A stretch of DNA of 58,375 nt from a virus. Taxonomy: Duplodnaviria; Caudoviricetes. The notes beneath the pieces are model-generated. The model saw only the letters and a list, made by a program, of their open reading frames with translations. It ran no database searches and had not been told where the DNA came from. The stretch spans positions 1-58,375 of the IMG/VR virus record IMGVR_UViG_3300011115_000472, one strand, 5' to 3'. This document shows positions 14,789 through 58,375 of the stretch, piece after piece. The translations under genes and the position numbers were made by a program. The stretch's first letter is position 1, and each line of letters begins with the position of its first letter.

Positions 14789-14800
14789 GTCAACTCCCTA

Positions 14801-16717
14801 TTAAAAACCAAAGTTGCTGGCAACCAATTGCCATTTTGAATTGACAGAGTTGTACATAAACCCCATGTAATCATACTTGCCACCACTGCTAGATACAGTA
14901 GGCAATGCAACGTCATTAGAGCCTTGAAAAATAGCATTCCATGAGAACGTTTGTACAGCAGTAGAAGACATTCTAAAAATCAATTTTTGCCCGTTTGTAG
15001 GCGTTCCTGTAGGCGCGTTAACAGTAAATGTTGCCGCACCTTGGGTATTAGGCATTGTGGCTATATCTGTTGTGTCACCGTTTATTGTGATAGATGCGGC
15101 TGTAGCAGTGTTTACAACACGAGCCTGAATGGTCTTGTTGCTCAATGTTTCAGTACCAGCCAACGTAGCCAACGTTCCAGTCGTTGGCAAAGTCACCCCC
15201 GTGGTTCCAGAAACCGTAAAAGTTGTGGCAAAGTTTCCTGTAATGGTTAGGGTACTAGCGGCGTTGTTTGCCACGCCAGTGCCACCATAAGCAGGCCCAA
15301 TAACGCTTCCATTCCACGTACCTGAAGTGATGGTTCCAATACTTGCCAAACTAGACAATGTTGTAACAGCAGTGTTTACCAAAGTGCCGCTTGTTGGCAA
15401 CGTAACGCTCGTAAGAGCAGTGGTGGTGAGGGTAAGTCCAAACGCTCCAGCGGTCGTAAAAGCTCCTGCTGTAGAAACATTTCCACCAACAGTAATGGTA
15501 TTTGCACCGTTGTTAACTCCAGTGCCACCGTAGGTTGCGCCAATAACGGTAGCATTCCAAGTTCCAGAGGTAACTGTGCCAATACTAGCAAGGCTCGACA
15601 ATGTCGTTACAGCAGTGTTTACCAGCGTTCCAGAGGTTGGCAAAGTAACACTGGTAAGAGCAGTTGTGGTCAAAGTCAGACCAAAAGCACCAGCGGTTGT
15701 AAATGCCCCAGCAGTTGTGAGCGCTCCAGCAGTGGAAACATTACCACCCACAGTAATTGTGTTAGCGCCATTATTTACGCCCGTTCCACCATAAGTAGCG
15801 CCAATAATGGTGGCATTCCAAGTCCCCGCGGTAATGGTGCCAACGCTTACAAGACTAGATAAGGTGGTTACAGCCGAATTGACCAATGTTCCAGTTGTTG
15901 GGAATGTCACGCTTGTGTTAGCGCTTAAATTACCCGTGAACGTGTAAGCCCCTGACATGGTGACGTTGCCACCAATGGTGATGGTGTTTGCTCCGTTGTT
16001 GACGCCTGTGCCACCGTTTGTGCCACCTAACGTACCAGAGACGTGTGTTGTAAGCCCGATCTTTCCCCAAGCTGGGGCCGTGGTAACTCCGCCTGATATC
16101 AATGCATTACCAGTGGCCACATCAGCAAGTTTTGCAAAAGTTGTGGTGGTGTCGGCATAAAGCAAATCGCCCACCGCATACGACGCATAACCTGTACCGC
16201 CGTTTGCGGCCACAAGGGTTCCCGCCACCGTTACCGCGCCCGAAGTCGCGCTTGATGGGGTCAGACCAGTCGTGCCAAACGAAATTGTGGTCACCGCCAC
16301 GCCAGACAATGTAGACCACTGGGGTGCCGTACCCGTAGAGGTCAGAATCTGTCCCGCCGTACCGATTCCCAACTTGGTCAGAATAGTGCCCGAAGCATAG
16401 TAGGACAGGTCACCAGCGGTGTAAGAAGTCAGCCCAGTACCGCCAGAAGACGTATCTAACGTGCCTGCAAGGGTCACTACTCCAGTTGTTGCAGTTGACG
16501 GTGTCAAGCCACCCAAAGATGTCTGGAAGGACAGAACTGGCGCAGAGGTGGCGTTTGATGCCAACAACTTGACGGTTCCAGCCGCATTCTTGAAGTACAA
16601 CTTCTCATCTTGAATGTTGATTGCCAACTCGCCGCTGGCAAGATTTGTATTTAACGGCACGGCTAACGCTGTTGTGCTGTAGTACAACGAAATTGGGGTA
16701 TAGCCTGATGCTGACAT
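14801..16717 (-). CDS. Tail fibre protein
   Basis: N-terminal LASGELAINIQDEKLYFKN attachment-type motif; three to four GGTGV(N/A)N repeats. Confidence 0.78.
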   Translation of the reverse strand: MSASGYTPISLYYSTTALAVPLNTNLASGELAINIQDEKLYFKNAAGTVKLLASNATSAPVLSFQTSLGGLTPSTATTGVVTLAGTLDTSSGGTGLTSYTAGDLSYYASGTILTKLGIGTAGQILTSTGTAPQWSTLSGVAVTTISFGTTGLTPSSATSGAVTVAGTLVAANGGTGYASYAVGDLLYADTTTTFAKLADVATGNALISGGVTTAPAWGKIGLTTHVSGTLGGTNGGTGVNNGANTITIGGNVTMSGAYTFTGNLSANTSVTFPTTGTLVNSAVTTLSSLVSVGTITAGTWNATIIGATYGGTGVNNGANTITVGGNVSTAGALTTAGAFTTAGAFGLTLTTTALTSVTLPTSGTLVNTAVTTLSSLASIGTVTSGTWNATVIGATYGGTGVNNGANTITVGGNVSTAGAFTTAGAFGLTLTTTALTSVTLPTSGTLVNTAVTTLSSLASIGTITSGTWNGSVIGPAYGGTGVANNAASTLTITGNFATTFTVSGTTGVTLPTTGTLATLAGTETLSNKTIQARVVNTATAASITINGDTTDIATMPNTQGAATFTVNAPTGTPTNGQKLIFRMSSTAVQTFSWNAIFQGSNDVALPTVSSSGGKYDYMGFMYNSVNSKWQLVASNFGF

Positions 16718-16740
16718 GGGTTTGTCCTCCTTGCTTGATT

Positions 16741-19605
16741 TTATCGATATCTTAGTAACATTAGGAAGTTACCGCTTGACGCAGAGGTAATAAAATTCCA
16801 CCCCGAGTTATTGCCCCCGTCTGTCGAATTTATGGCATTCCAAGTAGCTCCACCAGTAGCCGTCGATCTACTGATAGACAAATAGTTTGAATTGACAGTT
16901 CCACTTGATTTTGACAGCGTGTGGCTTGCGGCAGTTGCAGAGCCAATCGTCACCAAGTTACCCGCAGTTCCGTTGACGTTCCAGTTGGTTACTGTGGTAG
17001 TTGTTGCCGCAGTAAACGTGAAAGTAGTAGGTTGAACAGAGTTAGAAATGCTTGTAAATGTGTTTGACCCTGTTATGGTCAATGCGCCAGCACCAGCGTT
17101 TTGTAATGTGCAGTTAAAGGTAGAGCCACCACCCACAAATGTCTTAGCAGTTGCGGCAGTCATTGAAATTGTGCCTGTGCCTGTGCCTGCGGTAGTTGTA
17201 AAACCTGCGGGAACAACGTTATAAAAAGCAGTTGTAGAGGCTGTTGGGCAGACTAATGTGCCACCGTTAAAAGTTAAGTTTTTTGTTCCTGCTACAGTTT
17301 GCAATGTTAAGCCAACAGTTAATGTTTGTCCATTTAAATTTAAAGTTCCAGCGGTTAAAAAACAAGTTCTTGTAGAACCCATTGTCAAGGCATCTTGCAG
17401 TTGGAATGTCCCACCAACTCCATTAAAATTAAGCGGGAAATCTATTGTTTTGGTGTTTGTTGTTATTTGCTGAGTGCCACTAGTTGCCCCAAATAACATT
17501 GCGTTTGTACTAGCAGTAAGCGTCATGCCTGTAGAAAATTTTAAATTTCCATATATTGTGGCATTAACGCCTGTTGCACCTAATGTTCCAGCATAACCAG
17601 TAAAGTCTACGTTTCTTGCTGTGTGGCTGGTTCCTGATAAAAACGTCAAGGCATAAATCCCACCAGTAAAGTTAAAACTGATAGAGTTTGCTTGTGATAA
17701 TGCACCGGGTGCAACAGTAATAAGAGTAGAACCCGTACTTGTGACGTTAACGACTTGTGTGCCTGTTGTTGTTAAGTTTGAGGCTGTTGATGTAGACCAC
17801 ACCGTACCTGTACCAGTACAAGATATTTGACCTGTACCAAACGCAATTGTTCTAGTGTTTGTATTGCTTGAACTAAATAAACCTATGGATAACGTAAAAT
17901 TGTTTAGGTTTAATGTGCCAGTTGTAAGCACAATTGTTGCTGTTGCTGTTGTTGTCAATGCATCTTGCAAAGCAACAGAACCACTTGGGCTGTCAATAAA
18001 AATAGCTTGAGTAAATGTTCTGCCAGCACTTGTAATAGTTTGTGTTGTACGCCCTGAAAAATATATGTTGTTTACGCTCGATAATGTAATACCAGTACCA
18101 TTAATCCAATTGCCATATATGACTGGGTTACTTGAGGTATTTGCCAACGTCATAGTATTTGACGTTCGCAACGACATGTCTATTGTTCCTATGTTGTAAT
18201 TGCCATTAATGGTTGTCGTAGAACCGCTTGCAGGGTAAGTAGCCGCAGGAAATACTGCAGTATCTTGTGCTAATGGGAACTGAGTGGCATCTAATGCGCC
18301 GCCTGATGTTGCAGACCATGAGCCTGATCCTGCACCGCCCCAGTTATTACTACCAGTTTGACCATAATAAACAGTCTTAGCCGCAGGGAAAGTAATGTTG
18401 CTATTTCCCTTACAATTACCTAACCTAGTTCCTGACCAAGTACCTGATGCGCCAGCGGCAACAATATCTCTAAAATCAATATCAGTTAAAGACGCAACAG
18501 TTGCAACTGTTAATGTACGTGAAGTTGCCACAGTGTCAGAGGCAATCATTGTGCGATATGCCGCCGCAGTGCCTGCGCTTATAGTTAATGTGCCACTTAT
18601 TGTTTGGTTTGCGCCAAAATTATATTGACTAATGCCAAGACTAGTTCTGCTGGCCAGAGATAAATTGGTAAATGTATTTGTGCCTGTAATTGTTGCCGCA
18701 GAGGTTAAACCACCTGATGTATACGCTACATTGTAATAAGTTAATCCACCACCATTAAAAACTGGCCCAGAAGCACTTGTAATGTTAATTGTTGATGTTC
18801 CAGCATTAAGTGTTGCACTGGTGCTGGTTGCCATATTCCAAGCATTACTATTAGAGCTTAATGTTAATGTAGATGCATTTAAATTAATTGTTCTTGCGGT
18901 TGCGACACTTGAGCTAAAAGCAGTAGCAGTTACCGCATAATTTCCCGAGGAAGAAGTACTAAATGTTCCACTTGTTACAACAACTGTTACACTAGATAAA
19001 GCACTACCAAGCGTCCATCCTCCGCCAACGCCATTAAAATCAACATTTGCACCAAAAGCAACGCCATTGGTAGTTACTGTTTTTCCAGTTGTTGTTGCGT
19101 TAAATGTGGTTGCTCCGTTATATGTTATAGTAAAGTTTGTGGCTTGAAATGTGAGACTGCCTGATACTGTTAATCCAATAGCAGAACCAGCAAGCGTCAT
19201 CGTTCCATCAAGCCCTGACGCTGTAAAGTCATTACATAGTCTTGGCGTAACCGACATGGTGACTGTAAATGCCGTTGTGCCACTATTTGAATTGGCATCA
19301 AAAAATACAGAGTCTGCCGCTGTTGGTACAGACGCGCCAACAGTCGCCGCGCTCATGCTTTGCGATGCGTAAGTGCCACCAACAGACACAACCCACGTAT
19401 TAACTGCACCGCTGACAATTGTGCCAAGTGAAACATGGGCGCTTGACCATACAGTCATCCCCGCCACAAGTGCGGGTGATCCAGTAGTCGTTAAAGCAGT
19501 ACCAGTGCAAGTGGCAGTAAAAGACAAACCTGTGGCTGTAGACCAATTAGCTGTGCTTACGTCACTCCAAGCGCCAGTTCCACCTACCCAATAGCGATTG
19601 GCCAT
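16741..19605 (-). CDS. Large beta-helix-like tail fibre/spike protein (paralog 1)
   Basis: 954 aa; colinear paralog of 11861..14788. Confidence 0.75.
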   Translation of the reverse strand: MANRYWVGGTGAWSDVSTANWSTATGLSFTATCTGTALTTTGSPALVAGMTVWSSAHVSLGTIVSGAVNTWVVSVGGTYASQSMSAATVGASVPTAADSVFFDANSNSGTTAFTVTMSVTPRLCNDFTASGLDGTMTLAGSAIGLTVSGSLTFQATNFTITYNGATTFNATTTGKTVTTNGVAFGANVDFNGVGGGWTLGSALSSVTVVVTSGTFSTSSSGNYAVTATAFSSSVATARTINLNASTLTLSSNSNAWNMATSTSATLNAGTSTINITSASGPVFNGGGLTYYNVAYTSGGLTSAATITGTNTFTNLSLASRTSLGISQYNFGANQTISGTLTISAGTAAAYRTMIASDTVATSRTLTVATVASLTDIDFRDIVAAGASGTWSGTRLGNCKGNSNITFPAAKTVYYGQTGSNNWGGAGSGSWSATSGGALDATQFPLAQDTAVFPAATYPASGSTTTINGNYNIGTIDMSLRTSNTMTLANTSSNPVIYGNWINGTGITLSSVNNIYFSGRTTQTITSAGRTFTQAIFIDSPSGSVALQDALTTTATATIVLTTGTLNLNNFTLSIGLFSSSNTNTRTIAFGTGQISCTGTGTVWSTSTASNLTTTGTQVVNVTSTGSTLITVAPGALSQANSISFNFTGGIYALTFLSGTSHTARNVDFTGYAGTLGATGVNATIYGNLKFSTGMTLTASTNAMLFGATSGTQQITTNTKTIDFPLNFNGVGGTFQLQDALTMGSTRTCFLTAGTLNLNGQTLTVGLTLQTVAGTKNLTFNGGTLVCPTASTTAFYNVVPAGFTTTAGTGTGTISMTAATAKTFVGGGSTFNCTLQNAGAGALTITGSNTFTSISNSVQPTTFTFTAATTTTVTNWNVNGTAGNLVTIGSATAASHTLSKSSGTVNSNYLSISRSTATGGATWNAINSTDGGNNSGWNFITSASSGNFLMLLRYR

Positions 19606-22818: not shown

Positions 22819-23214
22819 TTACCATCCAGAGCAGTTCCAACGCTTCAAAGAGGCTTTTGCCCTTGGTGCATCGCCCTTAGCGTGCTCCACAACTCCACTC
22901 ATTCGGGCACAAAAAGAATCTTTACGTGCGCCGCCTTGAGGTTGAGGTGCCTTGAGGTTAGAACCTGTTTCTCGATTGTACTTTTCTCTGCCTTTTTTTG
23001 TAAGTCCTGCGCCTTGTTTTACGGAAAGTTTTTCACCGCGGCCAACCGCAAGACTTACGCCGCCTTCTTTTAATTTGGCGGTTTTTGCTGACTCTCGGAA
23101 GGCTTCAGCCGTTGGCGCACCTTTGCTACCAACTCGGCGCATCTTTTCGCCAGAGCCTTCAGCAATTCTTTCGCGTTTTGCATTAAGGTTTGCATACAAG
23201 CCCTTCTTAGTCAT
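22819..23214 (-). CDS. Basic two-module protein, C-terminal half DUF6321-like
   Basis: KKGLYAN..GSGEKMR module, LKEGG linker, then GLTKKGREKYNRETGSNLKAP..SFCARM..RWNC; start reassigned to MTKKG. Confidence 0.7.
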   Translation of the reverse strand: MTKKGLYANLNAKRERIAEGSGEKMRRVGSKGAPTAEAFRESAKTAKLKEGGVSLAVGRGEKLSVKQGAGLTKKGREKYNRETGSNLKAPQPQGGARKDSFCARMSGVVEHAKGDAPRAKASLKRWNCSGW

Positions 23215-23216
23215 AT

Positions 23217-23567
23217 TTACCAATCAGAATTCTTTTTGCCCTTTGATGTTGTAGAAACACCGCAAGCATTGAGATTGATTTTTCCACCAGTGGTATAGCT
23301 TTTTTTAACTTCTCCACCTTTTTTATACATTGTTGGGTTTGGGTTGCCACCACCGCCACCAAGTGCGCTTTGGGCCGTACCAATAGCCGATCCCACAGTA
23401 GCGGCACCAGAATTGATTTGTCCCAATCCGTCTTGCGCGCTACCGCCTCCACCGCCTAAACCTTTGCCACCAATTGGGCCTGAAGGCATTTGAGGTGTGT
23501 CAGTAGGACGTGGTGCATCGCCATTAGCAGGCGTCATCATTGACCCAAGTTGTGCTATTGATGCCAT
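23217..23567 (-). CDS. Gly-rich GG-motif protein
   Basis: 116 aa; YKKGG and YTTGG; RBS AAGGA. Confidence 0.75.
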   Translation of the reverse strand: MASIAQLGSMMTPANGDAPRPTDTPQMPSGPIGGKGLGGGGGSAQDGLGQINSGAATVGSAIGTAQSALGGGGGNPNPTMYKKGGEVKKSYTTGGKINLNACGVSTTSKGKKNSDW

Positions 23568-23577
23568 AATTTTTCCT

Positions 23578-24015
23578 TTACCAGTTAGACTTTACTTTTC
23601 CGCCATCTTTAAATGGCGCAACTTTGCCCTTGCCAATTTTTTCTGACCACTCTTTGCGATGACTCGCGGCCTTGTCGGATGCGCCACTTTTTTCAGCATG
23701 TTCAGTAAAATTGCGCAGTCGGTTTGACTCACCGCGGCGTTGCAAACGGCCCAATTGCTTTTCAGACTCTGCAGTTTTCCCAGAGGCTTTTGCAATGTCA
23801 AACATTTTGCGATTGGCAGTTAGTTTATTTACAAGTTGTTTGCTTTTGTGTTGTTGCGTGCGAGTCATTCGACTAGCAGTGTCATCGCCATCATCGTCCT
23901 CATTACCACGAGGGTCGCCAATAGCTTTGTAATAATCCACATCACTGTCGTAGTCCATTGGATTTGTGGACATTGCACGTCCACCCATGGCTTTTTTAGA
24001 TTTGATGTGTGTCAT
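23578..24015 (-). CDS. Basic GG-motif protein
   Basis: Start reassigned to MTHIKSKKAMGG; FKDGG near the C-terminus. Confidence 0.75.
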   Translation of the reverse strand: MTHIKSKKAMGGRAMSTNPMDYDSDVDYYKAIGDPRGNEDDDGDDTASRMTRTQQHKSKQLVNKLTANRKMFDIAKASGKTAESEKQLGRLQRRGESNRLRNFTEHAEKSGASDKAASHRKEWSEKIGKGKVAPFKDGGKVKSNW

Positions 24016-24017
24016 GA

Positions 24018-24422
24018 TTAGTTGTACCCTTTGGTCATCTCCAATATGCACCAGTAAGTGTCGCCTGAAGATGCGTCAGCCGTGCTAAAAACAATATTGC
24101 CAGTAACGCCAGCCCCGCCGTTGTTGGTGATACCGCCAAAAGCGCTCATGTCAAGTGTCTGCGTAGCAGTGGGAGATGAAAGAAAGAACGGCACATCCGT
24201 TGTAGCGTCCCAAAACATTCTGACTTCCATGCCATGATTGGAAATGTAGATTTTGGTAACCGTTACTCTGGTACAAGTTTGCCCAGAAGCGCTAGGGGTT
24301 AACGCAGAAACGTCTACCTTCAAAACCGCACTTTCACCAGTGCCATCACTGATGTTTGTAAATTTCATAATGACCGTGCGCTCACCATCAATAAGCGTTT
24401 GGCTCGTAACTGCATCAGCCAT
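24018..24422 (-). CDS. Conserved virion protein
   Basis: MADAVTSQTLIDGERTVIMKFTNISDGTGE; RBS GGAG. Confidence 0.75.
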   Translation of the reverse strand: MADAVTSQTLIDGERTVIMKFTNISDGTGESAVLKVDVSALTPSASGQTCTRVTVTKIYISNHGMEVRMFWDATTDVPFFLSSPTATQTLDMSAFGGITNNGGAGVTGNIVFSTADASSGDTYWCILEMTKGYN

Positions 24423-24465: not shown

Positions 24466-25794
24466 TCAGCACATTGCTCTTCCGCCGCTCCGTTTAGGCG
24501 CTACAGTAACTGATTTTTCAGTTTTTGTAACGCTACCCGCTGGTGCTGGCTTGCTAGTAAAGTAATCCTTCATCTTTTGATAACCCTCTTTGGCCATACT
24601 CAAAGGATTCAGCGCCTCTTCAAGCTCACGGCTTGCTTTGTCTGTAATCACTTTGGGATCGCCAGATGGGGTAACACGAGATTCATTTTCATACTTTTTT
24701 GCTTCGCCACCATTTTGGTAACGGTTTAATTGACCCTTTGCGGTGTCATGCGCGTCTCCTTTGTCATCCGTGTGGTAGTCGGCATCTTTGTAATGCTTAC
24801 CCTCTGGATCAAAGAATTTGACTCGATGCTCACCGTAATCTACGTCTTTATAAACCTTGGCAACGTGACCCTTCGGGCCTGTATGGGTCTTCAATAAACG
24901 CAAAGGAGTGGAACCTCCCCAAGTGCTGGTTCCACCCTTAGCCTTTTTTGAGACTTCTCCGCCATCCTTAAAGGTGCCAGATTGCATGCTGTTTGCCACA
25001 GGGCGGCTGACAGGTTTCTTCGGCATCGCGACGGGTTTGCCTGTATCAACAGTTCCCCCCGTCGCGTAGGCTTTTTTTGTTGAACCACCCATCTTGTAGC
25101 CGCCGCCGTTGGCTTTTTTTACGCCACCAGTGGTGGTGTTGGTCACGCCGGGTTTGGCCGTATCAGCAGGGCGGTTTTCCCAATTGACGTTTCCGCCATC
25201 TTTAAAACCCGCGCCGTTACCCATTCTGACGCCACCAGTGCCGCCTTTGGCTTTAGAACCATGTTCAGCGGTTCCTATGTCACCATTTAAATACTTGCCT
25301 GCGTTGCCTTTGATAGTGCCGCCGTTGGCATAGCCACCTGCATTACCCATCTTGACATCGCCAGTACCTTTTTTAGACTTGGAGCCGTGTTCAGCAGTTC
25401 CCATGTCACCATTTAAATACTTGCCAGCATTGCCCTTGACAGTAGTTTTTGCCATGGATGCAGTAACACCGCCGCCATCAGCAAACTTCTTACCAGCCAT
25501 AGCCTTCTTGATCATTTTGCGATCTTGAGCGGCGTCGTCATGCATTTCAGCTTTGCCACCTTTTTTGGCCATCATCATAGGGTTCATCGCTTTACGACGA
25601 GCCATCATTGACGGACGCTTAGGTGCCATGCCCATTGGGGCACTTGCCATTGCTGGTGCTTGAGCAGGCATAGTGGACTGCATAGGCATGTAACCGCCGT
25701 CTGCTTTTTTCTCAACTTTGCCGCCCTTTTTAAGCTTCAGAATTACTGAAGGCTCCGTGGTCATCATTTTGACCATTGGTTTAAATTGACCCAT
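24466..25794 (-). CDS. Lys/Gly/Met-rich protein with at least 12 xxxGG motifs and one embedded globular module
   Basis: Start MGQFKPMVKM with RBS AAGGAG; 442 aa. Confidence 0.8.
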   Translation of the reverse strand: MGQFKPMVKMMTTEPSVILKLKKGGKVEKKADGGYMPMQSTMPAQAPAMASAPMGMAPKRPSMMARRKAMNPMMMAKKGGKAEMHDDAAQDRKMIKKAMAGKKFADGGGVTASMAKTTVKGNAGKYLNGDMGTAEHGSKSKKGTGDVKMGNAGGYANGGTIKGNAGKYLNGDIGTAEHGSKAKGGTGGVRMGNGAGFKDGGNVNWENRPADTAKPGVTNTTTGGVKKANGGGYKMGGSTKKAYATGGTVDTGKPVAMPKKPVSRPVANSMQSGTFKDGGEVSKKAKGGTSTWGGSTPLRLLKTHTGPKGHVAKVYKDVDYGEHRVKFFDPEGKHYKDADYHTDDKGDAHDTAKGQLNRYQNGGEAKKYENESRVTPSGDPKVITDKASRELEEALNPLSMAKEGYQKMKDYFTSKPAPAGSVTKTEKSVTVAPKRSGGRAMC

Positions 25795-25804
25795 GTTGTT
25801 CTCC

Positions 25805-26782
25805 TTATGCTTGTGTGACGCCAAGAGCGCCAGCACGGGTTGCATTCGGGCCTGCCGCAATTGCTGGCAGGGCTATTCCCATCACAAGACGCTTGATACC
25901 GTCACAAGCAGACGAGGGCAAATAAGTACCCCTCACATCACCAGTGGTTGTGGTTGCTGTGGCGGTAGCGGCAACAGTCATAGTTCCAGCATCTTCAGCC
26001 AAAGTATTGTCCCAACCAGCGCGGGTAACGTAGCCTCTATCAATGATACGCAATGGTGCGCCCAAGATGTCAGTTGTACCTACCGCAACAGTTACCACAC
26101 TTCCGCCAGATGCAGTAACACTAGCAATTTGGTAAAAGGCTTTCTTACCACTGACAGTAGTAGACGCCACTATTCCTGTTGCAATTACCTCGCTCATGGC
26201 TTGACCGTAGTAGTCGTAACCAGAAACAGTAATGTTGACAGAAGTCGGAGTGCCAGCACCAGTGGTTGTAGAAACCGCACGAGGGCAATCAAGTTGCAAG
26301 CCTGTTGCACCACCAGTAATGGTTGTTGATGTAACACCAGCACCTGCGGCAAGCGTGAGCGTGGTAGCAGTTGTGATAACAGCGGCAACAATGTTGGTTG
26401 TCACTTTTGCTTGTGGTACAGCGTCCCAAATATAAACGCGCCCTAATGGGCCAACGCCTACGCTCATTGGAGATGGGTTTTGCAAAAAAGCATTACCAGA
26501 ACCAACGATGGTGGAGCTTGCTACAGTTTGTGAGGCGCTTACGGTGTAAGTGCCTGTACCGCCAGAACCCGTACCAAAAGCGGTAATGTAGGTTCCATTG
26601 GTAAGTGAAGTTGAACTGTCAATAAACATACCCACAGTAATTGGGTCACCCGAAAGCATCGCGGTAACGGTCAATGTAGTGGTAGCAATTGAACCAGTAA
26701 AAGTTGCAACAGCAGGGTATTGATCTGTACCCTGAGTCGTAATAGCAGTACCTAAAAATAGGTCGTCGGAAAATTGAGGCAT
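25805..26782 (-). CDS. Capsid decoration/minor virion protein
   Basis: Start [11 protein letters not shown] with RBS AAGGAG; follows the MCP; Thr-rich. Confidence 0.7.
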
Positions 26783-29981: not shown

Positions 29982-30437
29982 TTAAACATAGGCTTTGAAC
30001 GACAACGGATCGTCAGTGATTTTTGCTATCACCTCGTGATCATTAATCGTCATGAATAACACTTGGTCTTCGTTAGATTCCTCGCTAGGAACATTGCGCT
30101 CCCAACGATCGCCGCCCCATCGAGGTACACGAACAAAATCTCCAACCTGTGCCCAAGTTCCCTCTGGCCAAGACTCCATGGTTTCACGGTTCTTGTACGC
30201 CAAAGGCCCAAGTGCCACGACCCTACCGATCATGTTGTTCCACTTTTCGTTTTCTTTGGTTTCATCCACGATGATGATCATTCCAGCCTTCTTTTTGATG
30301 CGACGTAATTGAACTATCACGCGCCCTCCAAGAGGTGCCTGCCCCGGATTTACATCAGGGAACGCCCATGCCAACTCTTGAGGATTAGACGCTTGCGCGC
30401 TTCCCCCGATCGTTGGGATCTTTTCTCTTTCACTCAT
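29982..30437 (-). CDS. GroES-like co-chaperonin
   Basis: PLGGRVIV..GMIII..GRVVALGP..VGDFV..INDHEVIAKI matches the Cpn10 pattern. Confidence 0.85.
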   Translation of the reverse strand: MSEREKIPTIGGSAQASNPQELAWAFPDVNPGQAPLGGRVIVQLRRIKKKAGMIIIVDETKENEKWNNMIGRVVALGPLAYKNRETMESWPEGTWAQVGDFVRVPRWGGDRWERNVPSEESNEDQVLFMTINDHEVIAKITDDPLSFKAYV

Positions 30438-30851: not shown

Positions 30852-33353
30852 TCATACTCCTTGGGGTCGAGGCATTGGCTCGGGTGGTGGTGGTGGCGCT
30901 GACATCGCAGGCGGTGCCTTTGGTGCGGGTGGTAGCGCAGGGGGTTGTTGTGGAGTTGCCGCCACATCATTCGCATGTTGAATCGTTTCGTGAGTCAACT
31001 TTGAATTTTCGATATCAATCTTGGTTTGATTGTCCATTGCATGCTTCTGGATGTCAGCTTGCAATTTGGCTTGATCGTATTGGATATCCGATTGGTCTTT
31101 TTGCGTCTTGCGTTGAGTTTCAGCCATACTCGTATCGTGGACGACTTGTGCATCAGGCGGCAATGTTTGCTTGGCTTGTTGTTGACGTTTCTGAGCTTGC
31201 TGAATCAATTGCTGGAATGCAGGCGCAAACTGTTGGAACGTATCTTGTACATCTAAGTTTACATGGGCACCAACCGTTGCATACAACTGGTCAATCGTTG
31301 CCGTCAGCCTTGGATCATCATAGTTATCCACAGGTTTTCCACCGCGGGTTTGAGCCACATAACCATTAGAACGGTTCAAGTACCACAACGTCATGTGTTG
31401 CTTGATGTGCTCGATTAAATGGTTGAGGTAACTTGGATCTGCAAATGGCGACTGGCCCAAGAATGGGTTTAAGCCAAATTGCAAGTGATCCTGAATGTGC
31501 GCAATGTGATCTTGTTGCATGTACGCATACGCAGGCTGGCCAATCAGCATGGCCGCGTTTTCATCAGCAGAGGTGCGTTGTTCAGGCGCAGGCACGTCCT
31601 TCATCAATTCATTGATGTTGGGCACCTTCATTTGCTTGAGTGAGCGAGACAACACAGCGCCCATGTTGAACTGGTCAGGGTGCTTTTCCGCCAACTGCAT
31701 CACAGCCTGCATCTGAGCCATGCGTTGTGTCTCAGAGAAGATGTGCGGGTCAGACACTGGCACAACATCCGTGTTCTTGGCAAAGTCTTGGCGATTGATA
31801 TCCAAGTCAGCCACCACATCAGACTTGCGCATCTCGTCAAAGTGCCAACGGTTCAATCGGCAAAGAATTCGCAAAACGCGTGCTTGGCTTTCGTGCAGTC
31901 GCGCATGAATAGCGCTAAACACCGCGGCCCCTTGTTCAATCAGAGCCTGCGTGGTGCCCACAGGAGCCTGTGCAGACACGTCAGCGATCTTTTCTTCGCT
32001 CGTGGTCACTACCCCCTTAGCCGCGGTATCAAGCCAGCCTAGGAGCTTAAATAAGACCTCGCTGGGTGGGTTGAACGGCATGGGCATGGCGATCTGTCGG
32101 ATATCGGAAACGCCGGGTGCGCCTTCGATCTCCACAATCTGCGTCACTTCCACTTGCTGGCTCTGGCCGCTGATCTTTGCTCCCTTGAGCTTTAGCATCG
32201 TGGCCGCGTTGTTAATGTGAGCCGAATCCATCAAGGCGCGCAAAGCACCCGTCAAAGCCGCACTGAGTCCACCAATCAAGTGGGGGAGGCCAATTGCATA
32301 TGCACCACGCCACGGGATAAATTTAAACTCCACAATCCAATCTAACTTGGTCATCGTGTCGTCTGTCTCTTCCCAATTGCGATACAGGCCAATAACCTCG
32401 TTGTCCAACTCGTCAATCATCAGGATGTACGGAGCCATCTCGCCTTTGCTGTACTCGTCCTCTTCCAATTCCAAGAACGTGTAGATGTGATACACCTTGC
32501 GCAGGCCATCGCTGTTGTCTTCGTACTTCTTGCCTTCAATCTTGTCGTTGGCTTTTTGCGCCTTGGTTGGCTCGACTTCCGTCGTTGCCTTTACTAGCGT
32601 AACGTCACGGTACATGCCAGTGGAAATACGACGATTGAACTCCCAGTGCGTGATCTCGTGCATTTCAGCGGCACGCTCTGCGGTGTAGAAGTTACTGGCC
32701 GCAAATGGCAGGATCACACGGTCGATTGGCAAGAACTCCACGCATGGGCGCTTCTTCTGCTCGTCAAACCATAATTTAAAGTATTGCGATCCACCTAAAG
32801 GCAATTGCGTCAGCATCTGCTCTTGCTCGTCACGGAACTCTTGTATCTGCTCCGTAATCTGCCAGTTCAAATAGTCACGCTTGCGCTCAGCACGATCAGC
32901 TTTAACGTCGTCCATCTTGCCCAAGATTTTTGTACGTACAGGGCCATCAGGTGGAAACATCTCTTTGATTGCACGAGCGGCAAAGTCAACACAGCCCTCA
33001 GCCATGGCCGGGTGCACAACTTTGCTGGCACCCATAAACGTTGCACCACCGGGGGCGTCGTTGCCCATACCAGTGCGCTTGATGCCCTCTTCGTATTGTT
33101 TGTCACGCTGTTCGCGTGCATCCTTATCGCTCTTTAGCAAATCGATATAACGACCCGACATCGACGTCAATTCCATAGGGTCATACGACTCTGCCATGTT
33201 GGCGTAGAAATCTGGATTGACTTCGGGGCCATCATCCTCAACAGTAACAATGGCACTGCCGTCAGGCTGTTCTTCCGTCTGCATCTCAGGCAGATCTACA
33301 ACCGCGCTACCGTCTTCGTTTTCAGTAATCTGTGGGTCTAATTCATCCATCAT
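30852..33353 (-). CDS. Portal protein (P22-like)
   Basis: 833 aa; GASKVVHP, LPLGGSQYFK, FIPWRGAYAIGL, PVGTTQALIEQG; Gln-rich C-terminal barrel. Confidence 0.88.
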   Translation of the reverse strand: MMDELDPQITENEDGSAVVDLPEMQTEEQPDGSAIVTVEDDGPEVNPDFYANMAESYDPMELTSMSGRYIDLLKSDKDAREQRDKQYEEGIKRTGMGNDAPGGATFMGASKVVHPAMAEGCVDFAARAIKEMFPPDGPVRTKILGKMDDVKADRAERKRDYLNWQITEQIQEFRDEQEQMLTQLPLGGSQYFKLWFDEQKKRPCVEFLPIDRVILPFAASNFYTAERAAEMHEITHWEFNRRISTGMYRDVTLVKATTEVEPTKAQKANDKIEGKKYEDNSDGLRKVYHIYTFLELEEDEYSKGEMAPYILMIDELDNEVIGLYRNWEETDDTMTKLDWIVEFKFIPWRGAYAIGLPHLIGGLSAALTGALRALMDSAHINNAATMLKLKGAKISGQSQQVEVTQIVEIEGAPGVSDIRQIAMPMPFNPPSEVLFKLLGWLDTAAKGVVTTSEEKIADVSAQAPVGTTQALIEQGAAVFSAIHARLHESQARVLRILCRLNRWHFDEMRKSDVVADLDINRQDFAKNTDVVPVSDPHIFSETQRMAQMQAVMQLAEKHPDQFNMGAVLSRSLKQMKVPNINELMKDVPAPEQRTSADENAAMLIGQPAYAYMQQDHIAHIQDHLQFGLNPFLGQSPFADPSYLNHLIEHIKQHMTLWYLNRSNGYVAQTRGGKPVDNYDDPRLTATIDQLYATVGAHVNLDVQDTFQQFAPAFQQLIQQAQKRQQQAKQTLPPDAQVVHDTSMAETQRKTQKDQSDIQYDQAKLQADIQKHAMDNQTKIDIENSKLTHETIQHANDVAATPQQPPALPPAPKAPPAMSAPPPPPEPMPRPQGV

Positions 33354-36300
33354 TTAGCCTTCTTTGATTTGCGGCTTAATTCTAAGTTCATGATATCCAT
33401 ATTTGTGGATAGGTTCACTTTGCCGCCTTTTTTGTAGCCCAAGCGCTTCTTCATTGCAAGCTCGTATTCGCCCATCTGATTGATGTATTGCTCATCGATT
33501 GGCTCACGAATAATGTTCATCTTCGCTTGGTTGAACGGAACAACTTTCTTGCCCATCCGCGCAATCTCTTGTCTAGCATTGTGCATTGAACGTGGTGCCA
33601 AAATATCAGCAGGCGTAGTGTAACGAGTACGTCCCACTAATTTTGATGGTATGTCGTGACCATACGTCGGGTGAGGGGAAATGCTTTCCTTCAAGCTACG
33701 GTTTGGATCAAATTTAATGATTGACGATCCGCCTGCACCAGTCTCAATGTCGCGCAACTCAGGATGGCTAATTGCATAGATGATGTCATCTAGCTTTTGC
33801 TTACCGCCAGCCATGTACTTCTCTTTGCCCAGCATGCTAATAATCTTCTTGCGCATGCCTGAATTAAATGGCGCTTGCAATCTAATGTCCGACGGATTTT
33901 CAAAACCGGGAAAGTCAGGATAGGGCTTGTCATTCTTGTTGGTAGTCAACTTTACATTGCGCATTAAATGGTTGAGTTGCTCAATCTGCTCTTTAGGCAA
34001 CTTGTGCGGCTGATGGTGCGCTAACACTGAGTCCAGCATATGCACTGCGTGATACAACGCCTCTGGTGACATCTTGTGGTAGTGGCCATAGACATCCATC
34101 TCAGGATTATCTTTGGCCAAACGCTTCACAACGTTAAACATACCGCGGCTGGCACCCAAGTCACTTGCCCAGCCAGCAGGATGGCCATAGGCACCATAGT
34201 CTTTGCCACCGTACAAACCAACGGGTTGCTCCAAAGTTTCAAAGCCAATTGATTTAAGGTACTCGCCTGCTTCAGGTGAGTCCATGTTTGAATTGTTGGT
34301 GGGCATTACACCACCGCGGCTTGTGTCACCGGGTACGCCTACTGAGTACGAACCCTTCAGGTTTCCGTAATCAATAATTGGCGTCTCATTCTTCTTTGAG
34401 CTTTCAATTCCAACTTGCAAATCTTTCTCACGCGCCATCTGTTGCAGTGTCTTGCCCGTTGGGTTTTCTTGCCCCGACACTTGACGCGCCATACGCTCAG
34501 CATGCGCCTCAATGTCCGCCTTGCTTAATGTTGGCGATGGGCCGTAGTACAGGGGCTTCTTTGGCTTAGCAGACCCACCCTTGGCATACACCTCACGCTT
34601 GCCGTACTTGGGCTTCTTGGCCAGCACCAACGGGCCAATCTGCACCACATGTTCAGCATGGGTGATGGGCTCCATCGTCTCGCGGTCATAGAAGTCACCA
34701 TGACGGCGTGGGTCGTAGCCCACCTGACGATAATCAGGGTGATTAAAATACTTCTGAAAATGCTTGACAGCCTGATCTTCAGTCATGTGCTCGAGATCAC
34801 CCATGATCTTGGCAAATGGCGCTTTGTTCTGCTCACCAGTAGCCACGCGAACCGCTTTGTGTGGCGAGCCTTGAAACTCAGCATTGCGCACTGAGGAGAC
34901 GGGGCCGTAGGACGTTGCAAGTTTTTTCTCGCCGCCTGACTCATCATGTATTGAATTTACCCACACGCCATGATCTTCATATGCCGGGATGTCCAACCGC
35001 AGTCCTACGCGGTGGCCAGCAGGCCATGACTCATGACCACGCCATTTTGCTTTCTTCGGCTCATGTAGTGCGCGCATTGCGTCTTTATCAGTGGCAGGCT
35101 TGGGAATGAACTCATAAGGCTTGACGGGCTTTTCTTTGGCCACAACCTTGGCATACGCCTTTTGCTTCATGTCGCCTTCCATCAAAGCACGAGCCGCGGC
35201 TTCAATCTTTGGGTTACGACGTGATGCCTTGTCATCAAACACGGTAGGGCGCACCTCAACTTTAGGCGGTTGTCCACCATCTTTTAACAAGTTGATGTCA
35301 TTGATGTCAAATGGCGCATTGTTGTCAGGCATCCAAGATGAAGACACCGAACCACCATCAGCCATTTGAGGCGGCGCTTTGGGTGGCGTCATGGCGTTCA
35401 TAGCCTGCCCTTGTGGCGTCATCTGTAAGATGTTGCTTGGCGCTTGCTGAGGAGGCGCTCCACCACCCAATGGGGAAGGCATGCCCTGTTGCTCTGCGCC
35501 CTGCGGTGGCTGGCCTTCAGGCGGTTGCTTGGGCACCAAGCTCTGAGGTAGCAACTGATCGCCAGTCTGTTGTGGGCTCATGTCAACACCGCCAACTGGC
35601 ATTGGAGTGCCATCATTCTTGGGCGGCAGATATTCCTTGACATTCATGTTGGGAGCTTCCATAGCCCCGATCTTTGTCATATCTGAAAGTGATGTGGGCC
35701 TTTTGGTGGCCAACTCAGCGCGCATTTCATTGACTGATGGCACAGCACCGCCAACCGCCTTCTTGATCACATTGGGCGTCAATGGGTGCATCTTTTTGCC
35801 AGTCTTCTCTTGCACGTAGTAAGCGTTGTGGCCAGCCTTGCGCATGCCCTGCTGGACGCGGGGGTCTTCCAAATACTTGTGGTTACCCGCTGACAGCATC
35901 TCGCCCATGTGCTTGTGCACGTCAGGGATCTTGTTAAAGTCTTTGTGCTTGGAAATGTGGCCAGCAACATTGGTGACGTGCTCAGGGTTCTCATAGTCGA
36001 ATGGGTTCACATCGCCTCCTTCAGCGTATCCGCGCATGGCTTTAATAATGTCATTGTGCGTTGTTTGATTATTACCCGAAGCATCCCATACTGCATGGTG
36101 TGCCAAGTGTTGGTAGTGCGGTTGCATGGCCGGGTCTATCTTTAGATTCATGGCCGACTGCCTTGACGCTAATCGATCCACGGCTTCACGAGCCCCTTGA
36201 CCTTTGCCTCGATTCATGATAGAGCCAATGCCAACATTTGCAGGCAATGAATGCAGATTTAATTGGCGCGCATCGAGCGTCGGCAAATCACCGCGGCCAA

Positions 36301-36943
36301 GCATCGATCCAATGAAGCCAGACTTCGCCCCGGCCACACCCTTCATCTTCTCCGCAAAATCGCGGTAGTCATCCTTCGACCCGGTAATCGCTTGGTTTAG
36401 GTTCTGCGACATGGCAGGCATGTTCTGCGCCGCATAGATCATCTGGTCTGTCAATTGATTGTGCTTGCCAAACGGCGAGAATTTCTGTCGCACGTCATTG
36501 AGTGCAGGCTGATGCACCATACCGCGCTCTGCCGCGTTCAAATAGCTCTGCCCCATGGGTGACCCCAGCCACTCAGCAAAGGCCCCTTCTGGCCTCACCT
36601 CGTCGCCCGTGTTGGGGAGCTTCATGCCAGTCTTGGTGGCCGTAGCATGAGACAACCCACCGCGGCCAATGCTCGATTGAGTGATGGTGAATGCCTTCAG
36701 CAAGTCTCGTGTGGTCAGCCCTGCCGCCTGTGCTCGGGCCAATTGCTGGTTCATGAACTCGCCATAGTTCTTTTGAACGTAGTCGGGCACCTCGATGATA
36801 GGCATGTCCTTGCGGACGTCCTGCATCTTGCGCCACTTCCAATCTTCGATCTTTGTCGTCTTAGGATCGCGGTACTTAGAGACGTCGCCACCACCCTTCA
36901 TCAGCTCAAGGCGCATCCTGTCCATGTCTATTGGTGTTTCCAC
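33350..36943 (-). CDS. Large modular (polyvalent-type) protein, ~1197 aa, with an HhH-GPD-like module and GG-motif linkers
   Basis: Long ORF between terL and portal; probable GTG start at 36943 (track start 37003). Confidence 0.8.
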   Translation of the reverse strand: METPIDMDRMRLELMKGGGDVSKYRDPKTTKIEDWKWRKMQDVRKDMPIIEVPDYVQKNYGEFMNQQLARAQAAGLTTRDLLKAFTITQSSIGRGGLSHATATKTGMKLPNTGDEVRPEGAFAEWLGSPMGQSYLNAAERGMVHQPALNDVRQKFSPFGKHNQLTDQMIYAAQNMPAMSQNLNQAITGSKDDYRDFAEKMKGVAGAKSGFIGSMLGRGDLPTLDARQLNLHSLPANVGIGSIMNRGKGQGAREAVDRLASRQSAMNLKIDPAMQPHYQHLAHHAVWDASGNNQTTHNDIIKAMRGYAEGGDVNPFDYENPEHVTNVAGHISKHKDFNKIPDVHKHMGEMLSAGNHKYLEDPRVQQGMRKAGHNAYYVQEKTGKKMHPLTPNVIKKAVGGAVPSVNEMRAELATKRPTSLSDMTKIGAMEAPNMNVKEYLPPKNDGTPMPVGGVDMSPQQTGDQLLPQSLVPKQPPEGQPPQGAEQQGMPSPLGGGAPPQQAPSNILQMTPQGQAMNAMTPPKAPPQMADGGSVSSSWMPDNNAPFDINDINLLKDGGQPPKVEVRPTVFDDKASRRNPKIEAAARALMEGDMKQKAYAKVVAKEKPVKPYEFIPKPATDKDAMRALHEPKKAKWRGHESWPAGHRVGLRLDIPAYEDHGVWVNSIHDESGGEKKLATSYGPVSSVRNAEFQGSPHKAVRVATGEQNKAPFAKIMGDLEHMTEDQAVKHFQKYFNHPDYRQVGYDPRRHGDFYDRETMEPITHAEHVVQIGPLVLAKKPKYGKREVYAKGGSAKPKKPLYYGPSPTLSKADIEAHAERMARQVSGQENPTGKTLQQMAREKDLQVGIESSKKNETPIIDYGNLKGSYSVGVPGDTSRGGVMPTNNSNMDSPEAGEYLKSIGFETLEQPVGLYGGKDYGAYGHPAGWASDLGASRGMFNVVKRLAKDNPEMDVYGHYHKMSPEALYHAVHMLDSVLAHHQPHKLPKEQIEQLNHLMRNVKLTTNKNDKPYPDFPGFENPSDIRLQAPFNSGMRKKIISMLGKEKYMAGGKQKLDDIIYAISHPELRDIETGAGGSSIIKFDPNRSLKESISPHPTYGHDIPSKLVGRTRYTTPADILAPRSMHNARQEIARMGKKVVPFNQAKMNIIREPIDEQYINQMGEYELAMKKRLGYKKGGKVNLSTNMDIMNLELSRKSKKAK

Positions 36944-37030
36944 GGCTACTCTTTCATTGTGGTATGCATGGATTATGCCTTCGGTAATGCGGTAAGTCCA
37001 CAACCTGCTAGTTCCCTACCCGGTATGGAA

Positions 37031-38461
37031 CTAAGCCGCATATGGATTTACTTTGCGCTTCTTGTTGTGCTCGTCGGCATCAAAGATGTCATCGTCGTCG
37101 TAGTCTTCCCTTGGTGGGATATCAATGCTGATCCAGCCATAGTCGCGCAGGTATCTAAGCCCTTGGCTGATGCAGTCAACGAACTCGTCGTGCGCCGTCT
37201 CAGGGAACGAGCAGATCTGCGACACCATGCCCTCAGCCCAGTCACGCACGTAGCCCCGCTTCTTGCCGTGCTCTGGCACCCACACTCTTCCAGCTTTGAT
37301 AATGTTAGCAACAATGCTAAGTCTCTGAGTCTTGTCGGCCCTGCCGGGGTTGTACCCGAACACTGGCAAGTGAGCGCGCTCCAAGTCCTGAATGAGCGAG
37401 ATACCCGCGGCTTTGTCCTCCACCAGCAGTAAGTCCACGCGCTTCTTTTCCTTGCCTTCGCCGTACACCACCTCGTACTCTTCAATGATCTTGGGCCGCA
37501 GGTCTGGATACGTTAGCTTGTCCTGCCAGCAATCGATCACCATGACGCACATACCGCCGTCTAGGGGCTTGAAAGCACCAAGGGTGATACATCCAGTAGG
37601 GTCGTTCTCTTTGCCGTCCTTGTAGCCGCAATCGTAGCTCTGGATGATGTACTCAAAGCGTGGGAATGGCTTGCCGTCTGGCCACAGTCTGAACCAGTCA
37701 CGCTTGACAATGCCGAACTCCTCACCGTCCAGAATTTCTGCGTGGATCTCTTGCCTGCCCAAGCGGGTGCCTTCGTACTGAAGGATCTGCTTCTGGAAGC
37801 TCACCGCCAAGTTTTTCAAATTGTCATACGTGCTGGCGCGTGTGATCACCACATCGTCGCCCTCACGCTCAATTAGATTGAGCACCACTTCCTTTGGCTT
37901 GGGCGTGGTGGAGCATATGAGCTTAGTGCGCTTACCCAATCGGATGCCGAATTGAATCATGTCCCACGATTCCTGCAGGTAGTCCCAAGCGGCCAACTCA
38001 TCGAGCCACCCACCATGGAACTGTGGGCCGCGGAAGCGATCGGGCTCACTGGCCGGGATACCCTTAATAAACGAGCCATTGATCAGCTTGATCTCGTGCA
38101 GTGCCTTGTTGTAGTCCGCCACCAATTCTTTGGGGATTACATTGAGGAGCCCTGAGTCGCCCTCAAAGCAGGTGCCCTTGACGTCACCGCTAGTAGGCGC
38201 GCTAACGAGCCAGCGTGTGTTGGGTTGCTCCCATGCCCACATGGCCAGCGTCTCAGCCGCCGCTCTGGTCTTGCCGGCACCGCGGCCAGCCAGCATCAGC
38301 CAAACATTCCACCACTCGCCGGCAGGCTCGATCTGGTGCTTGTGCGCCTCACTGCTGAGCCAGCGTAACTGCCAGTTGATGACAATCTGGTCTATCAGCG
38401 GACTGTTAGCGAACTCCTCACTGATCTGTGGGTCAGCAAGGATCTCGTCGAGGACACTCAT
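37031..38461 (-). CDS. terL: Terminase large subunit
   Basis: Walker A AGRGAGKT, Walker B WLDE, STTP motif; RNase H-like C-terminus SYD...HDEFVD. Confidence 0.95.
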   Translation of the reverse strand: MSVLDEILADPQISEEFANSPLIDQIVINWQLRWLSSEAHKHQIEPAGEWWNVWLMLAGRGAGKTRAAAETLAMWAWEQPNTRWLVSAPTSGDVKGTCFEGDSGLLNVIPKELVADYNKALHEIKLINGSFIKGIPASEPDRFRGPQFHGGWLDELAAWDYLQESWDMIQFGIRLGKRTKLICSTTPKPKEVVLNLIEREGDDVVITRASTYDNLKNLAVSFQKQILQYEGTRLGRQEIHAEILDGEEFGIVKRDWFRLWPDGKPFPRFEYIIQSYDCGYKDGKENDPTGCITLGAFKPLDGGMCVMVIDCWQDKLTYPDLRPKIIEEYEVVYGEGKEKKRVDLLLVEDKAAGISLIQDLERAHLPVFGYNPGRADKTQRLSIVANIIKAGRVWVPEHGKKRGYVRDWAEGMVSQICSFPETAHDEFVDCISQGLRYLRDYGWISIDIPPREDYDDDDIFDADEHNKKRKVNPYAA

Positions 38462-54369: not shown

Positions 54370-54379
54370 TACCTACCCC

Positions 54380-55972: not shown

Positions 55973-55985
55973 GATTTTTTCCTTT

Positions 55986-58248: not shown

Positions 58249-58375
58249 CAGTAGGAATGTCGTCTTCTTCGGTGACGGGATCTTCGTCTTCGTCAGAAAC
58301 GCACATGCTCCCATTCCAATGGAATCCTTCTGCGCAAACAGGTTCTTCCTCTTCAACAACAGGTTCTTCCTCTTC
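58249..58375. repeat. Terminal overlap identical to 1-127
   Basis: Exact match to the window start. Confidence 0.97.

Follow-up and report, generated by a model that had tools for sequence, protein, structure and literature searches.

The sequence analysed here is the 58,375-bp genome of IMG/VR virus record IMGVR_UViG_3300011115_000472 (Duplodnaviria; Caudoviricetes), taken at its full length and referred to below as the window. It is a complete genome, with direct terminal repeats and a completeness rated at 100%. Nearly all of its long open reading frames (ORFs) lie on the minus strand, and the source virus is an uncultured short-tailed phage whose gene content includes the SU10 (podophage) adaptor domain PF24175. 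In transcription order, the structural block consists of the terminase gene TerL, a large ORF, the portal gene, a GroES-like gene, a gene for a 324-amino-acid (aa) protein and the capsid gene, followed by adaptor and fibre genes. A preliminary description of this DNA had drawn attention to the large ORF as a protein of about 1,200 aa between terminase and portal; the product is 1,197 aa long, and Pfam and PHROG matches confirm both flanking genes (Table 1). Comparison with related phages indicates that this protein is built of modules. In the phage population these come and go, change places and separate into genes of their own, always exactly at a short Gly-Gly peptide, which we call the seam.

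The frame is open over 33350..37003 (minus strand), beginning 27 nucleotides (nt) past the TerL stop, and holds 1,217 codons from a TTG at 37003 or 1,197 from the GTG at 36943; an ATG at 36925 is a further candidate start. Numbering under the identifier P0001 counts from the TTG, while module positions such as M1 20–312 count from the GTG. The protein tail ends AAGAAGGCTAAATGATG, and its stop codon (33350–33352), a TGA, overlaps the portal ATG (ATGA) behind the sequence AAGAAGG. Cysteine is absent from all 1,197 residues. Among the 150 representative homologues described below it makes up 0.03% of residues, with 125 of the 150 lacking it altogether, compared with 0.61% for 26 other ORFs of the window pooled. 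Such avoidance fits proteins that cross an envelope unfolded and gives a hint, and only a hint, of export.

Seven Gly-Gly (GG) sites had been listed in the preliminary description, and each is present, 5–7 nt from the position it was given; the dipeptides start at 36895, 36019, 35752, 35356, 35278, 34579 and 33427. The protein holds eight more GG sites, absent from that list, and plain GG is only mildly enriched (17 overlapping occurrences versus 9.6 ± 2.8 in shuffled sequences, with 23 of 2,000 shuffles as high). The context of the listed sites is far more specific: six of the seven match [MYFLIV]-[AK]-x-G-G and five of these continue x-[VIA], compared with 0.4 and 0.1 in shuffles. For the longer pattern, [MYFLIV]-[AK]-x-GG-x-[VIA], the counts are 5 versus 0.1 ± 0.3 shuffled in the window protein, 29 versus 1.0 in 14 locus proteins, and 286 versus 11.2 in the 150 representatives. 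The site at 35752 (K-A-V-G-G-A-V) is a variant: it has no aromatic residue at position −3, and Ala at −2 and Val at +2 are retained. For an unbiased view, each internal alignment end was assigned its closest GG whatever the surrounding residues, which gave 239 distinct sites. The resulting logo has Y (34%), M (16%) or F (7%) at −3, A (57%) or K (14%) at −2, K, E or D at −1, and V (45%) or I (17%) two residues past the GG; signal further upstream comes partly from the numerous homologous M1 ends. Read from these alignments, the seam is the seven-residue motif [Y/M/F]-[A/K]-x-G-G-x-[V/I].

A short helix motif of the form M-[R/K]-x-E-L often follows the seam. The window protein has three such places, with M-[R/N]-x-E-L beside a seam: one is the N-terminal leader, one the beginning of the Pro/Gln module and one the C-terminal tail. 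The two halves of a seam are inherited differently, the left with the upstream module and the right with the downstream one; G-K-R-x-x-Y-A-x, for example, closes M4 and P-P-x-M-A-K closes the Pro/Gln module. A recombination signal at the DNA level was considered and rejected: no nucleotide word is common to the six strict seams in this gene. Glycine codons at seams (GGT 0.41, GGC 0.49) match those at other GGs (0.40 and 0.48), and seam codons vary freely; conservation of the seam acts at the protein level. In AlphaFold2 models, the seams fall in unstructured segments with a low predicted local distance difference test score (pLDDT).

Searching 1.84 billion representative sequences with HMMER, we obtained 2,267 metagenomic proteins matching the window protein at E ≤ 0.001 and 673 at E ≤ 1e-30, the matches being piecewise, and the 150 best were used for module mapping by BLAST. 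M1 (residues 20–312) turned up anywhere along proteins of 205 to 3,728 aa, and M4 (about 555–795) and M5 (about 786–1197) were equally mobile. Among the best 150 representatives, M1 occurred in 95, M5 in 61, M4 in 46, the Pro/Gln module in 36 and M2 in 15. M1 and M5 shared one protein in 32, and only one representative held all five parts, in a different arrangement. Orders included M1-M5 (15), M5-M1 (6), M4-M1 (5) and M1-M4 (3), with M5-M4 and others also occurring. Internal BLAST alignment ends fell within 12 residues of the seven listed GG sites in 287 of 390 cases (74%), although these sites cover 14.6% of the protein, whereas the other GGs, covering 16.8%, accounted for 13 of the 390 (3%). 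On the subject side, 146 ends lay within 12 residues of a strict seam, versus 24.8 expected. An extra cluster of breakpoints lies near residue 880 inside M5, at a conserved internal S-R-G-G. The partition of the ORF at GG sites into M1, M2, a Pro/Gln segment, M4 and M5 that had been proposed from the sequence is thus upheld by the alignment ends, and so is the proposed exchange of modules at these motifs, since breakpoints coincide with seams and module order varies among the representatives. The Pro/Gln segment exists as described, but it is a conserved module and no mere linker.

The same interval was compared across nine IMG/VR loci and three GenBank phages. One locus, L005, is 96% identical and colinear. 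In L004 and L006–L013 (eight loci, L011 being a duplicate of L010), TerL is 73–81% identical, and the portal is 72–86% identical in the seven loci with a full or near-full gene, L007 having its first 71 codons only. Between these flanks lies a protein of 900–2,213 aa whose contents differ from locus to locus. L006 retains M2, the Pro/Gln module and M4 with different ends; L008–L010 retain the Pro/Gln module and M5 behind different N-terminal modules; M5 comes first in L012; and in L013 the interval is split into two genes. Neither M1 nor M5 is present in L004 and L006, and no module is universal at the locus. Colinearity of homologues over the full length, which would have spoken against module exchange, was found in L005 and in no other relative. 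Modules are gained and lost in the terL–portal interval of the others, as the preliminary description had anticipated.

The occupants of this interval point to a known class. Pfam families in proteins of related loci include ART-PolyVal (L002a, L007, L009 and L012b), InPase (L002c) and LPD23 (L010), and further PcfJ, GP88, Peptidase_M15_3 and GNAT. Of 33 long representatives, 18 carried a Pfam family at E ≤ 1e-5 and 15 carried none. The families were mostly those defined in polyvalent proteins: ART-PolyVal in seven (one below the cut-off), PcfJ in four, LPD23 in three, and LPD38, PBECR5, SLT, Zeta_toxin, DUF6782 and ASCH in one each. Because relatives sharing the locus, M1, M4 or M5 carry polyvalent Pfam domains, the assignment of the window gene product to the phage polyvalent proteins, in the sense of Iyer et al. 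2017, is supported by homology. Disparate domains occur in variable combinations, M1 and M5 being predicted to fold as separate domains, and the setting is among the virion genes of a terminase–portal phage, with the same locus occupied in L004–L013. The label given in the preliminary description therefore stands by way of relatives (ART-PolyVal, InPase, LPD23, LPD38, PBECR5 and PcfJ) but not by way of the window protein itself, which has no Pfam hit above the cut-off. Phage_Mu_F (the MuF or SPP1 gp7 type) likewise gave no match to the whole protein at Pfam E ≤ 0.1 or PHROG E ≤ 0.01. Judged by these comparisons, it belongs to a class already known but combines unnamed modules in a new way. The sole Pfam match among its own modules is that of M4 to Phage_L5_gp82 (E 9e-5; 22.8 bits, below the 27-bit cut-off), and M4 is also found within gp58 of Roseobacter phage CRP-207, behind the portal gene.

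Structure searches module by module, which had been suggested as a check, were run with Foldseek on M1, giving a glycosylase fold, and on M5, giving no match in the PDB at E ≤ 0.001. The M1 model, built from a 23-row alignment, has a pLDDT of 92.5 and a predicted template modelling score (pTM) of 0.91. VIA-align superposed it on 203 of 209 residues of the Thermotoga Ogg 3n0u_A with Z 17.0 and a root-mean-square deviation (rmsd) of 2.7 Å, followed by Z 16.2 (3fhg and 3knt_A) and 15.8 (3fhf). Endonuclease III, OGG1, MagIII, MutY and the queuine-salvage hydrolase DUF2419 (Z 10.1) followed at Z 8–11, and all 50 VIA-align matches listed belong to the HhH-GPD superfamily or DUF2419. Foldseek also placed Ogg2-type 8-oxoguanine glycosylases on top (probability 1.00, E 0.018–0.4). 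The predicted M1 structure thus has the same fold as Ogg2-type DNA glycosylases, helical and two-lobed with a helix-hairpin-helix, and no membership in the family by sequence. The likeness to 3n0u, 3fhg and 3knt extends over 197–205 residues at Z 17.0–15.8 and rmsd 2.7–3.1 Å, but identity is 8–13% and M1 has 291 aa compared with about 207; DUF2419, which acts on a nucleotide and not on DNA, also matches the fold. Two residues 17 apart, K188 and D205 (P0001 K227 and D244), are invariant in the 23 M1 sequences and bracket a Gly/Pro-rich loop, L-G-R-G-D-L-P-T-L, between helices 186–195 and 206–212. K188 presumably stands where the superfamily has the lyase Lys of its hairpin helix, and D205 where the catalytic Asp comes after the loop.

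The M5 model (16-row alignment) has a pLDDT of 87.1. The first 16 rows of an exhaustive VIA search hold 11 YTH domains, with THYN1, the McrB N-domain and DrmAB listed too and ASCH at rank 20; the remaining rows we take to be PUA-like folds. The PUA-like alignment spans residues 64–375, around a helical insert at about residues 171–270. We treat the resemblance of the M5 model to PUA-like readers of modified bases (YTH, ASCH, EVE), which is weak but one-sided, as a lead. In BFVD, M5 had 18 viral matches at E ≤ 0.001, nearly all unnamed, one being a ‘structural protein’ of a Flavobacterium phage (E 1.4e-4). The M5 profile matched no PDB sequence at E ≤ 1, and at E ≤ 10 the M1 and M5 profiles gave only a chance match, ribosome recycling factor, which was discarded.

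The seam is not confined to module borders. M1 also occurs in short proteins (113 matches of 160–510 aa, without an informative name from any source), 100 of which keep the M1 end motif; in 51 of these 100 a seam lies no more than 14 residues off, and 30 of the 51 end at most 12 residues past the G-G, so that the seam forms the C-terminus. Chain ends among the 150 representatives are of several types: 28 have a seam followed by M-x-x-E-L and a basic end, as in the window protein; 14 have a seam followed by V-T-H-A-H-H-L-E-I-E-E-R-P-L, a string that is never internal; nine stop within six residues of a seam; and 99 fit no type, many perhaps coming from cut contigs. A stop–restart cassette in L013 (1120–1175) consists of a seam, V-T-H-A-H-H-L-[D/E]-I-E-E-R-P-L and a stop, with GAGGAG 8 nt before an ATG that overlaps the TGA, which indicates that the polyvalent ORF has been split there into two coupled genes right past the seam.

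Other proteins encoded in the window carry the motif as well. A basic, Gly-rich protein of 464 aa from the virion cluster holds seven seams, compared with 0.50 expected (0 of 2,000 shuffles as high), and its orthologues in five other phages hold 7, 8, 12, 13 and 14, compared with about 0.5 expected. This family consists largely of seam motifs, and the sequence between them varies. Of three small basic proteins with one seam each (157, 116 and 134 aa), that of 157 aa has it six residues from its end, and a 357-aa protein at 57233–58306 has one seam motif. The reading of GG as a linker is accordingly right in part: the motif marks module borders, but it is more than a linker, since it ends stand-alone modules and recurs in proteins of the virion cluster.

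Further genes of the head cluster were annotated. The GroES-like gene lies between the portal and scaffold genes, and the annotations of MW202675 and MW202545 show it conserved there. The 324-aa protein, charged and scaffold-like, is encoded next to the GroES-like gene and the capsid gene; the major capsid protein has 304 aa, with a Phage_capsid_4 match beginning at residue 6, and the adaptor gene follows downstream (SU10_adaptor, E 1.2e-25). An acidic N-terminal tag, D-G-S-A-[V/I]-V-(D-L-P-E), occurs on the minus strand twice in the portal (33314 and 33263) and once in the 324-aa protein (29920), and D-G-S-A-[V/I]-V also occurs in the portal and a protein of roughly 330 aa in L005–L013. Being common to portal and scaffold, it suggests from sequence that both have the same binding partner. 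Far from the head cluster, at 52630–57230 (minus strand), three proteins contain no cysteine and are likely to be ejection proteins: an SLT transglycosylase protein of 579 aa and its unnamed neighbours of 530 and 414 aa. Three large ORFs between the head and fibre genes (975, 638 and 954 aa; 11861–19605, minus strand) had no PHROG or Pfam match.

Table 1 Features of the polyvalent locus, its neighbours and related seam-bearing genes
Feature	Position	Strand	Description
TerL	37031..38461	−	Pfam Terminase_6N, E 4.5e-24
Putative polyvalent cargo gene	33350..36943	−	GTG start at 36943, AAAGAG upstream; 1,197 aa
N-terminal leader	36878..36925	−	Helix motif M-x-x-M-R-L-E-L, then seam 1 (L-M-K-G-G-G-D-V)
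M1, 291 aa	36014..36886	−	Predicted Ogg2-type HhH-GPD DNA glycosylase fold
Seam 2 (Y-A-E-G-G-D-V)	36008..36028	−	M1/M2 border
M2, 87 aa	35753..36013	−	No family; recurs behind a seam in L004, L006, L008 and L010
Seam 3 (variant K-A-V-G-G-A-V) and helix motif N-E-M-R-A-E-L	35711..35764	−	
Pro/Gln-rich module	35273..35752	−	Conserved; present in 36/150 representatives and most related loci
Seam 4 (Q-M-A-D-G-G-S-V)	35345..35365	−	
Seam 5 (L-L-K-D-G-G-Q-P)	35267..35287	−	Border to M4
M4, 231 aa	34580..35272	−	Pfam Phage_L5_gp82 (weak), phrog_586
Seam 6 (V-Y-A-K-G-G-S-A)	34568..34588	−	M4/M5 border
M5, about 380 aa	33434..34576	−	Predicted beta-barrel with helical insert
C-terminal tail	33353..33436	−	Seam 7 (Y-K-K-G-G-K-V), helix motif M-D-I-M-N-L-E-L, basic end K-K-A-K
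Portal	30852..33353	−	phrog_1216, E 1.9e-22; 833 aa
GroES-like protein	29982–30437	−	Pfam Cpn10, 22.6 bits versus cut-off 21.1
Seam-rich 464-aa protein	24466..25860	−	Basic, Gly-rich, virion cluster; 7 seam motifs
Three small basic proteins (157, 116, 134 aa)	22819..24051	−	One seam each
Orthologues of the 464-aa protein	L015 3489–4793; L016 3369–5429; L018 2986–3702; L019 298–1641; L020 1450–2751		

On this evidence, we consider it probable that the polyvalent protein is a single chain of independently folding and independently inherited modules, joined by seams and presumably built in as cargo. Its parts would run in the order leader, M1 (DNA-glycosylase fold), M2, Pro/Gln module, M4, M5 (PUA-like barrel) and conserved tail. 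Its position and the ATGA overlap suggest that it is made alongside the head proteins and translationally coupled to the portal; it would then be incorporated into the procapsid, leave the particle with or ahead of the DNA and act on the nucleic acid of the newly infected cell.

Several results weigh against this account or its parts. The class assignment rests on relatives, and NCBIfam gave no match for the polyvalent protein or its seam-bearing neighbours. None of the 23 M1 alignment members matched the Pfam HhH-GPD model at E ≤ 1, and the M1 profile matched no PDB sequence at E ≤ 1. For M5, the best Z was 5.8 (4u8t; rmsd 3.8, 145 aligned), below the caution level of the tool, and in the ESM Atlas M4 had no usable match and M5 matched only unnamed viral clusters at 0.82–0.83. 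As to the seam, 137 of the 390 internal alignment ends have no GG within 12 residues in the subject protein, and alignment ends come from related sequences and so are not independent events. In 49 of the 100 short M1 proteins, a hydrophobic Gly/Ala-rich tail of 20–35 residues replaces the seam; this tail may be a membrane or shell anchor standing in for a seam tag. Finally, no seam-binding partner was found. Complex prediction for the portal (833 aa; alignment of 7 rows) and the C-terminal 45 residues of the polyvalent protein (9 rows supplied, 8 counted) scored 0.00 in both runs, controls being absent, with the verdict ‘no answer’, and speaks neither for nor against a contact.

What the seam does is less certain than where it lies. 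Because it is kept at free chain ends and multiplied in a companion protein, it looks as though it is read by a partner, which favours a tag over a hinge. Among the readings of the seam we tentatively prefer that of a recognition tag: some component of the virion or of its assembly would hold each module by it. A wider version, to which we give somewhat less credence, is that the seam could be a general tag for cargo loading and retention in this phage lineage, borne by every protein of the capsid interior: the polyvalent modules, the stand-alone modules, the ‘glue’ protein with its 7–14 copies and the small basic proteins would all be tagged, and a virion or assembly component would read the tag, the candidates being the scaffold, the inward side of the capsid protein and the acidic D-G-S-A-V-V tags that portal and scaffold have in common. 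Were every module to come with a tag, exchanging modules in frame at any seam would give a product that can be loaded, which would explain cassette exchange at the locus. Encapsulin cargo-loading peptides, which are short, contain Gly and a few fixed hydrophobic residues and dock cargo inside an HK97-fold shell, offer a proposed likeness, lying as the seam does at chain ends or in disordered stretches; the motif differs, and the comparison is an analogy only.

A doubtful but sizeable competitor is a polyprotein, in which a phage or host protease cuts after or near the G-G and frees the modules in the capsid or the host, much as viral polyproteins are cut at G-G. The motif does have the shape of a protease site, being hydrophobic at one fixed position and rich in small residues, with a residue past the GG that varies, and it lies in segments modelled as unstructured; Iyer et al. 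(PMC5512222), in their main text, argue from DdrB of phage P1 for processing of polyvalent proteins, and one representative carries a putative metallopeptidase, DUF6782. Yet the window protein contains no HExxH, HExxxH or cysteine, and searches with PHROGs and Pfam found no prohead protease or other protease family in the polyvalent protein, TerL, the portal or 25 other ORFs, smaller ORFs not having been scanned. The capsid match, which begins at residue 6, leaves no room for a long pro-piece, and a cut in the 30 stand-alone M1 proteins that end at a seam would free almost nothing (12 residues or fewer).

We find it unlikely that the seam is a mere hinge or joint, that is, a flexible, structure-breaking spacer kept because in-frame recombination there gives folded products, with nothing to recognize it. 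Exchange points do coincide with seams, each half of a seam does stay with the module that it adjoins, and low pLDDT at the seams agrees with flexibility. A spacer, however, has no need of a conserved aromatic residue at −3, Ala at −2 and Val at +2; the seam DNA holds no common word to guide recombination; the motif is retained at chain ends, where there is nothing to link; and it is present in 7–14 copies in proteins containing little else.

That the whole protein is a structural, channel-forming ejection protein like T7 gp15/gp16 or P22 gp7/16/20, and no carrier of anti-host enzymes, is improbable: it sits in the head cluster, is Cys-free like the SLT-domain protein and its neighbours, and has relatives with SLT or M15 cell-wall enzymes, but the separate SLT protein of this genome and its Cys-free neighbours already fit the ejection role, the lack of any universal module (L004 and L006 being without M1 and M5) is unlike an essential channel part, and the modules include an enzyme fold in M1 and, in relatives, ART and pyrophosphatase domains.

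Known Gly-Gly motifs were compared with the seam and set aside. The GroES loop that binds GroEL reads G-G-I-V-L. This comparison was prompted by the GroES-like gene of the phage; in the seam, the residue past the GG is usually polar and the upstream positions disagree. Double-glycine bacteriocin leaders and adenovirus-type (M/L/I)-x-G-G sites have their hydrophobic residue shifted by one position relative to the seam and offer an analogy only.

In print, the closest precedents are two. The main text of Iyer et al. 2017 (PMC5512222) describes polyvalent proteins, their phage context and mosaicism, and proposes processing by a zincin peptidase. The likeness lies in unrelated domains within one chain, a virion-gene setting and heavy shuffling, and ART-PolyVal, InPase, LPD23, LPD38 and PBECR5 of that work recur in relatives of the window protein. 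The window modules differ in being absent from Pfam above the cut-off, and the window protein has no zincin peptidase; neither the seam peptide nor the M1 fold is described in that main text. Bayfield et al. 2023 (PMC10172136) describe large cargo proteins, C1/gp45 and C2/gp46, in the capsid and tail of the podovirus-like crassvirus PhiCrAss001. These are believed to leave by way of the tail in a partly unfolded state; a gp45 domain held by the portal in the capsid is a precedent for a cargo ‘handle’. The crassvirus cargo was seen in particles by mass spectrometry and cryo-electron microscopy, whereas the window protein is a putative particle component. In the literature searched, we found no description of a Gly-Gly junction peptide in polyvalent or cargo proteins, and within that literature the seam system of junction, end-tag and multi-copy companion appears to be undescribed.

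The modules of the window protein widen the known repertoire. Since the glycosylase fold predicted for M1 co-occurs with the possible modified-base reader M5 in 32 of 150 representatives, the pair points to attack on, or defence of, modified DNA at entry. Polyvalent proteins are thought to be the first weapons that a phage fires into the cell. A seam peptide at every module border and at stand-alone ends, together with its companion protein, provides a concrete experimental handle on this arsenal. If the seam is a loading tag, chosen proteins could be loaded into phage capsids, and the cassette-like evolution of these loci would be explained.

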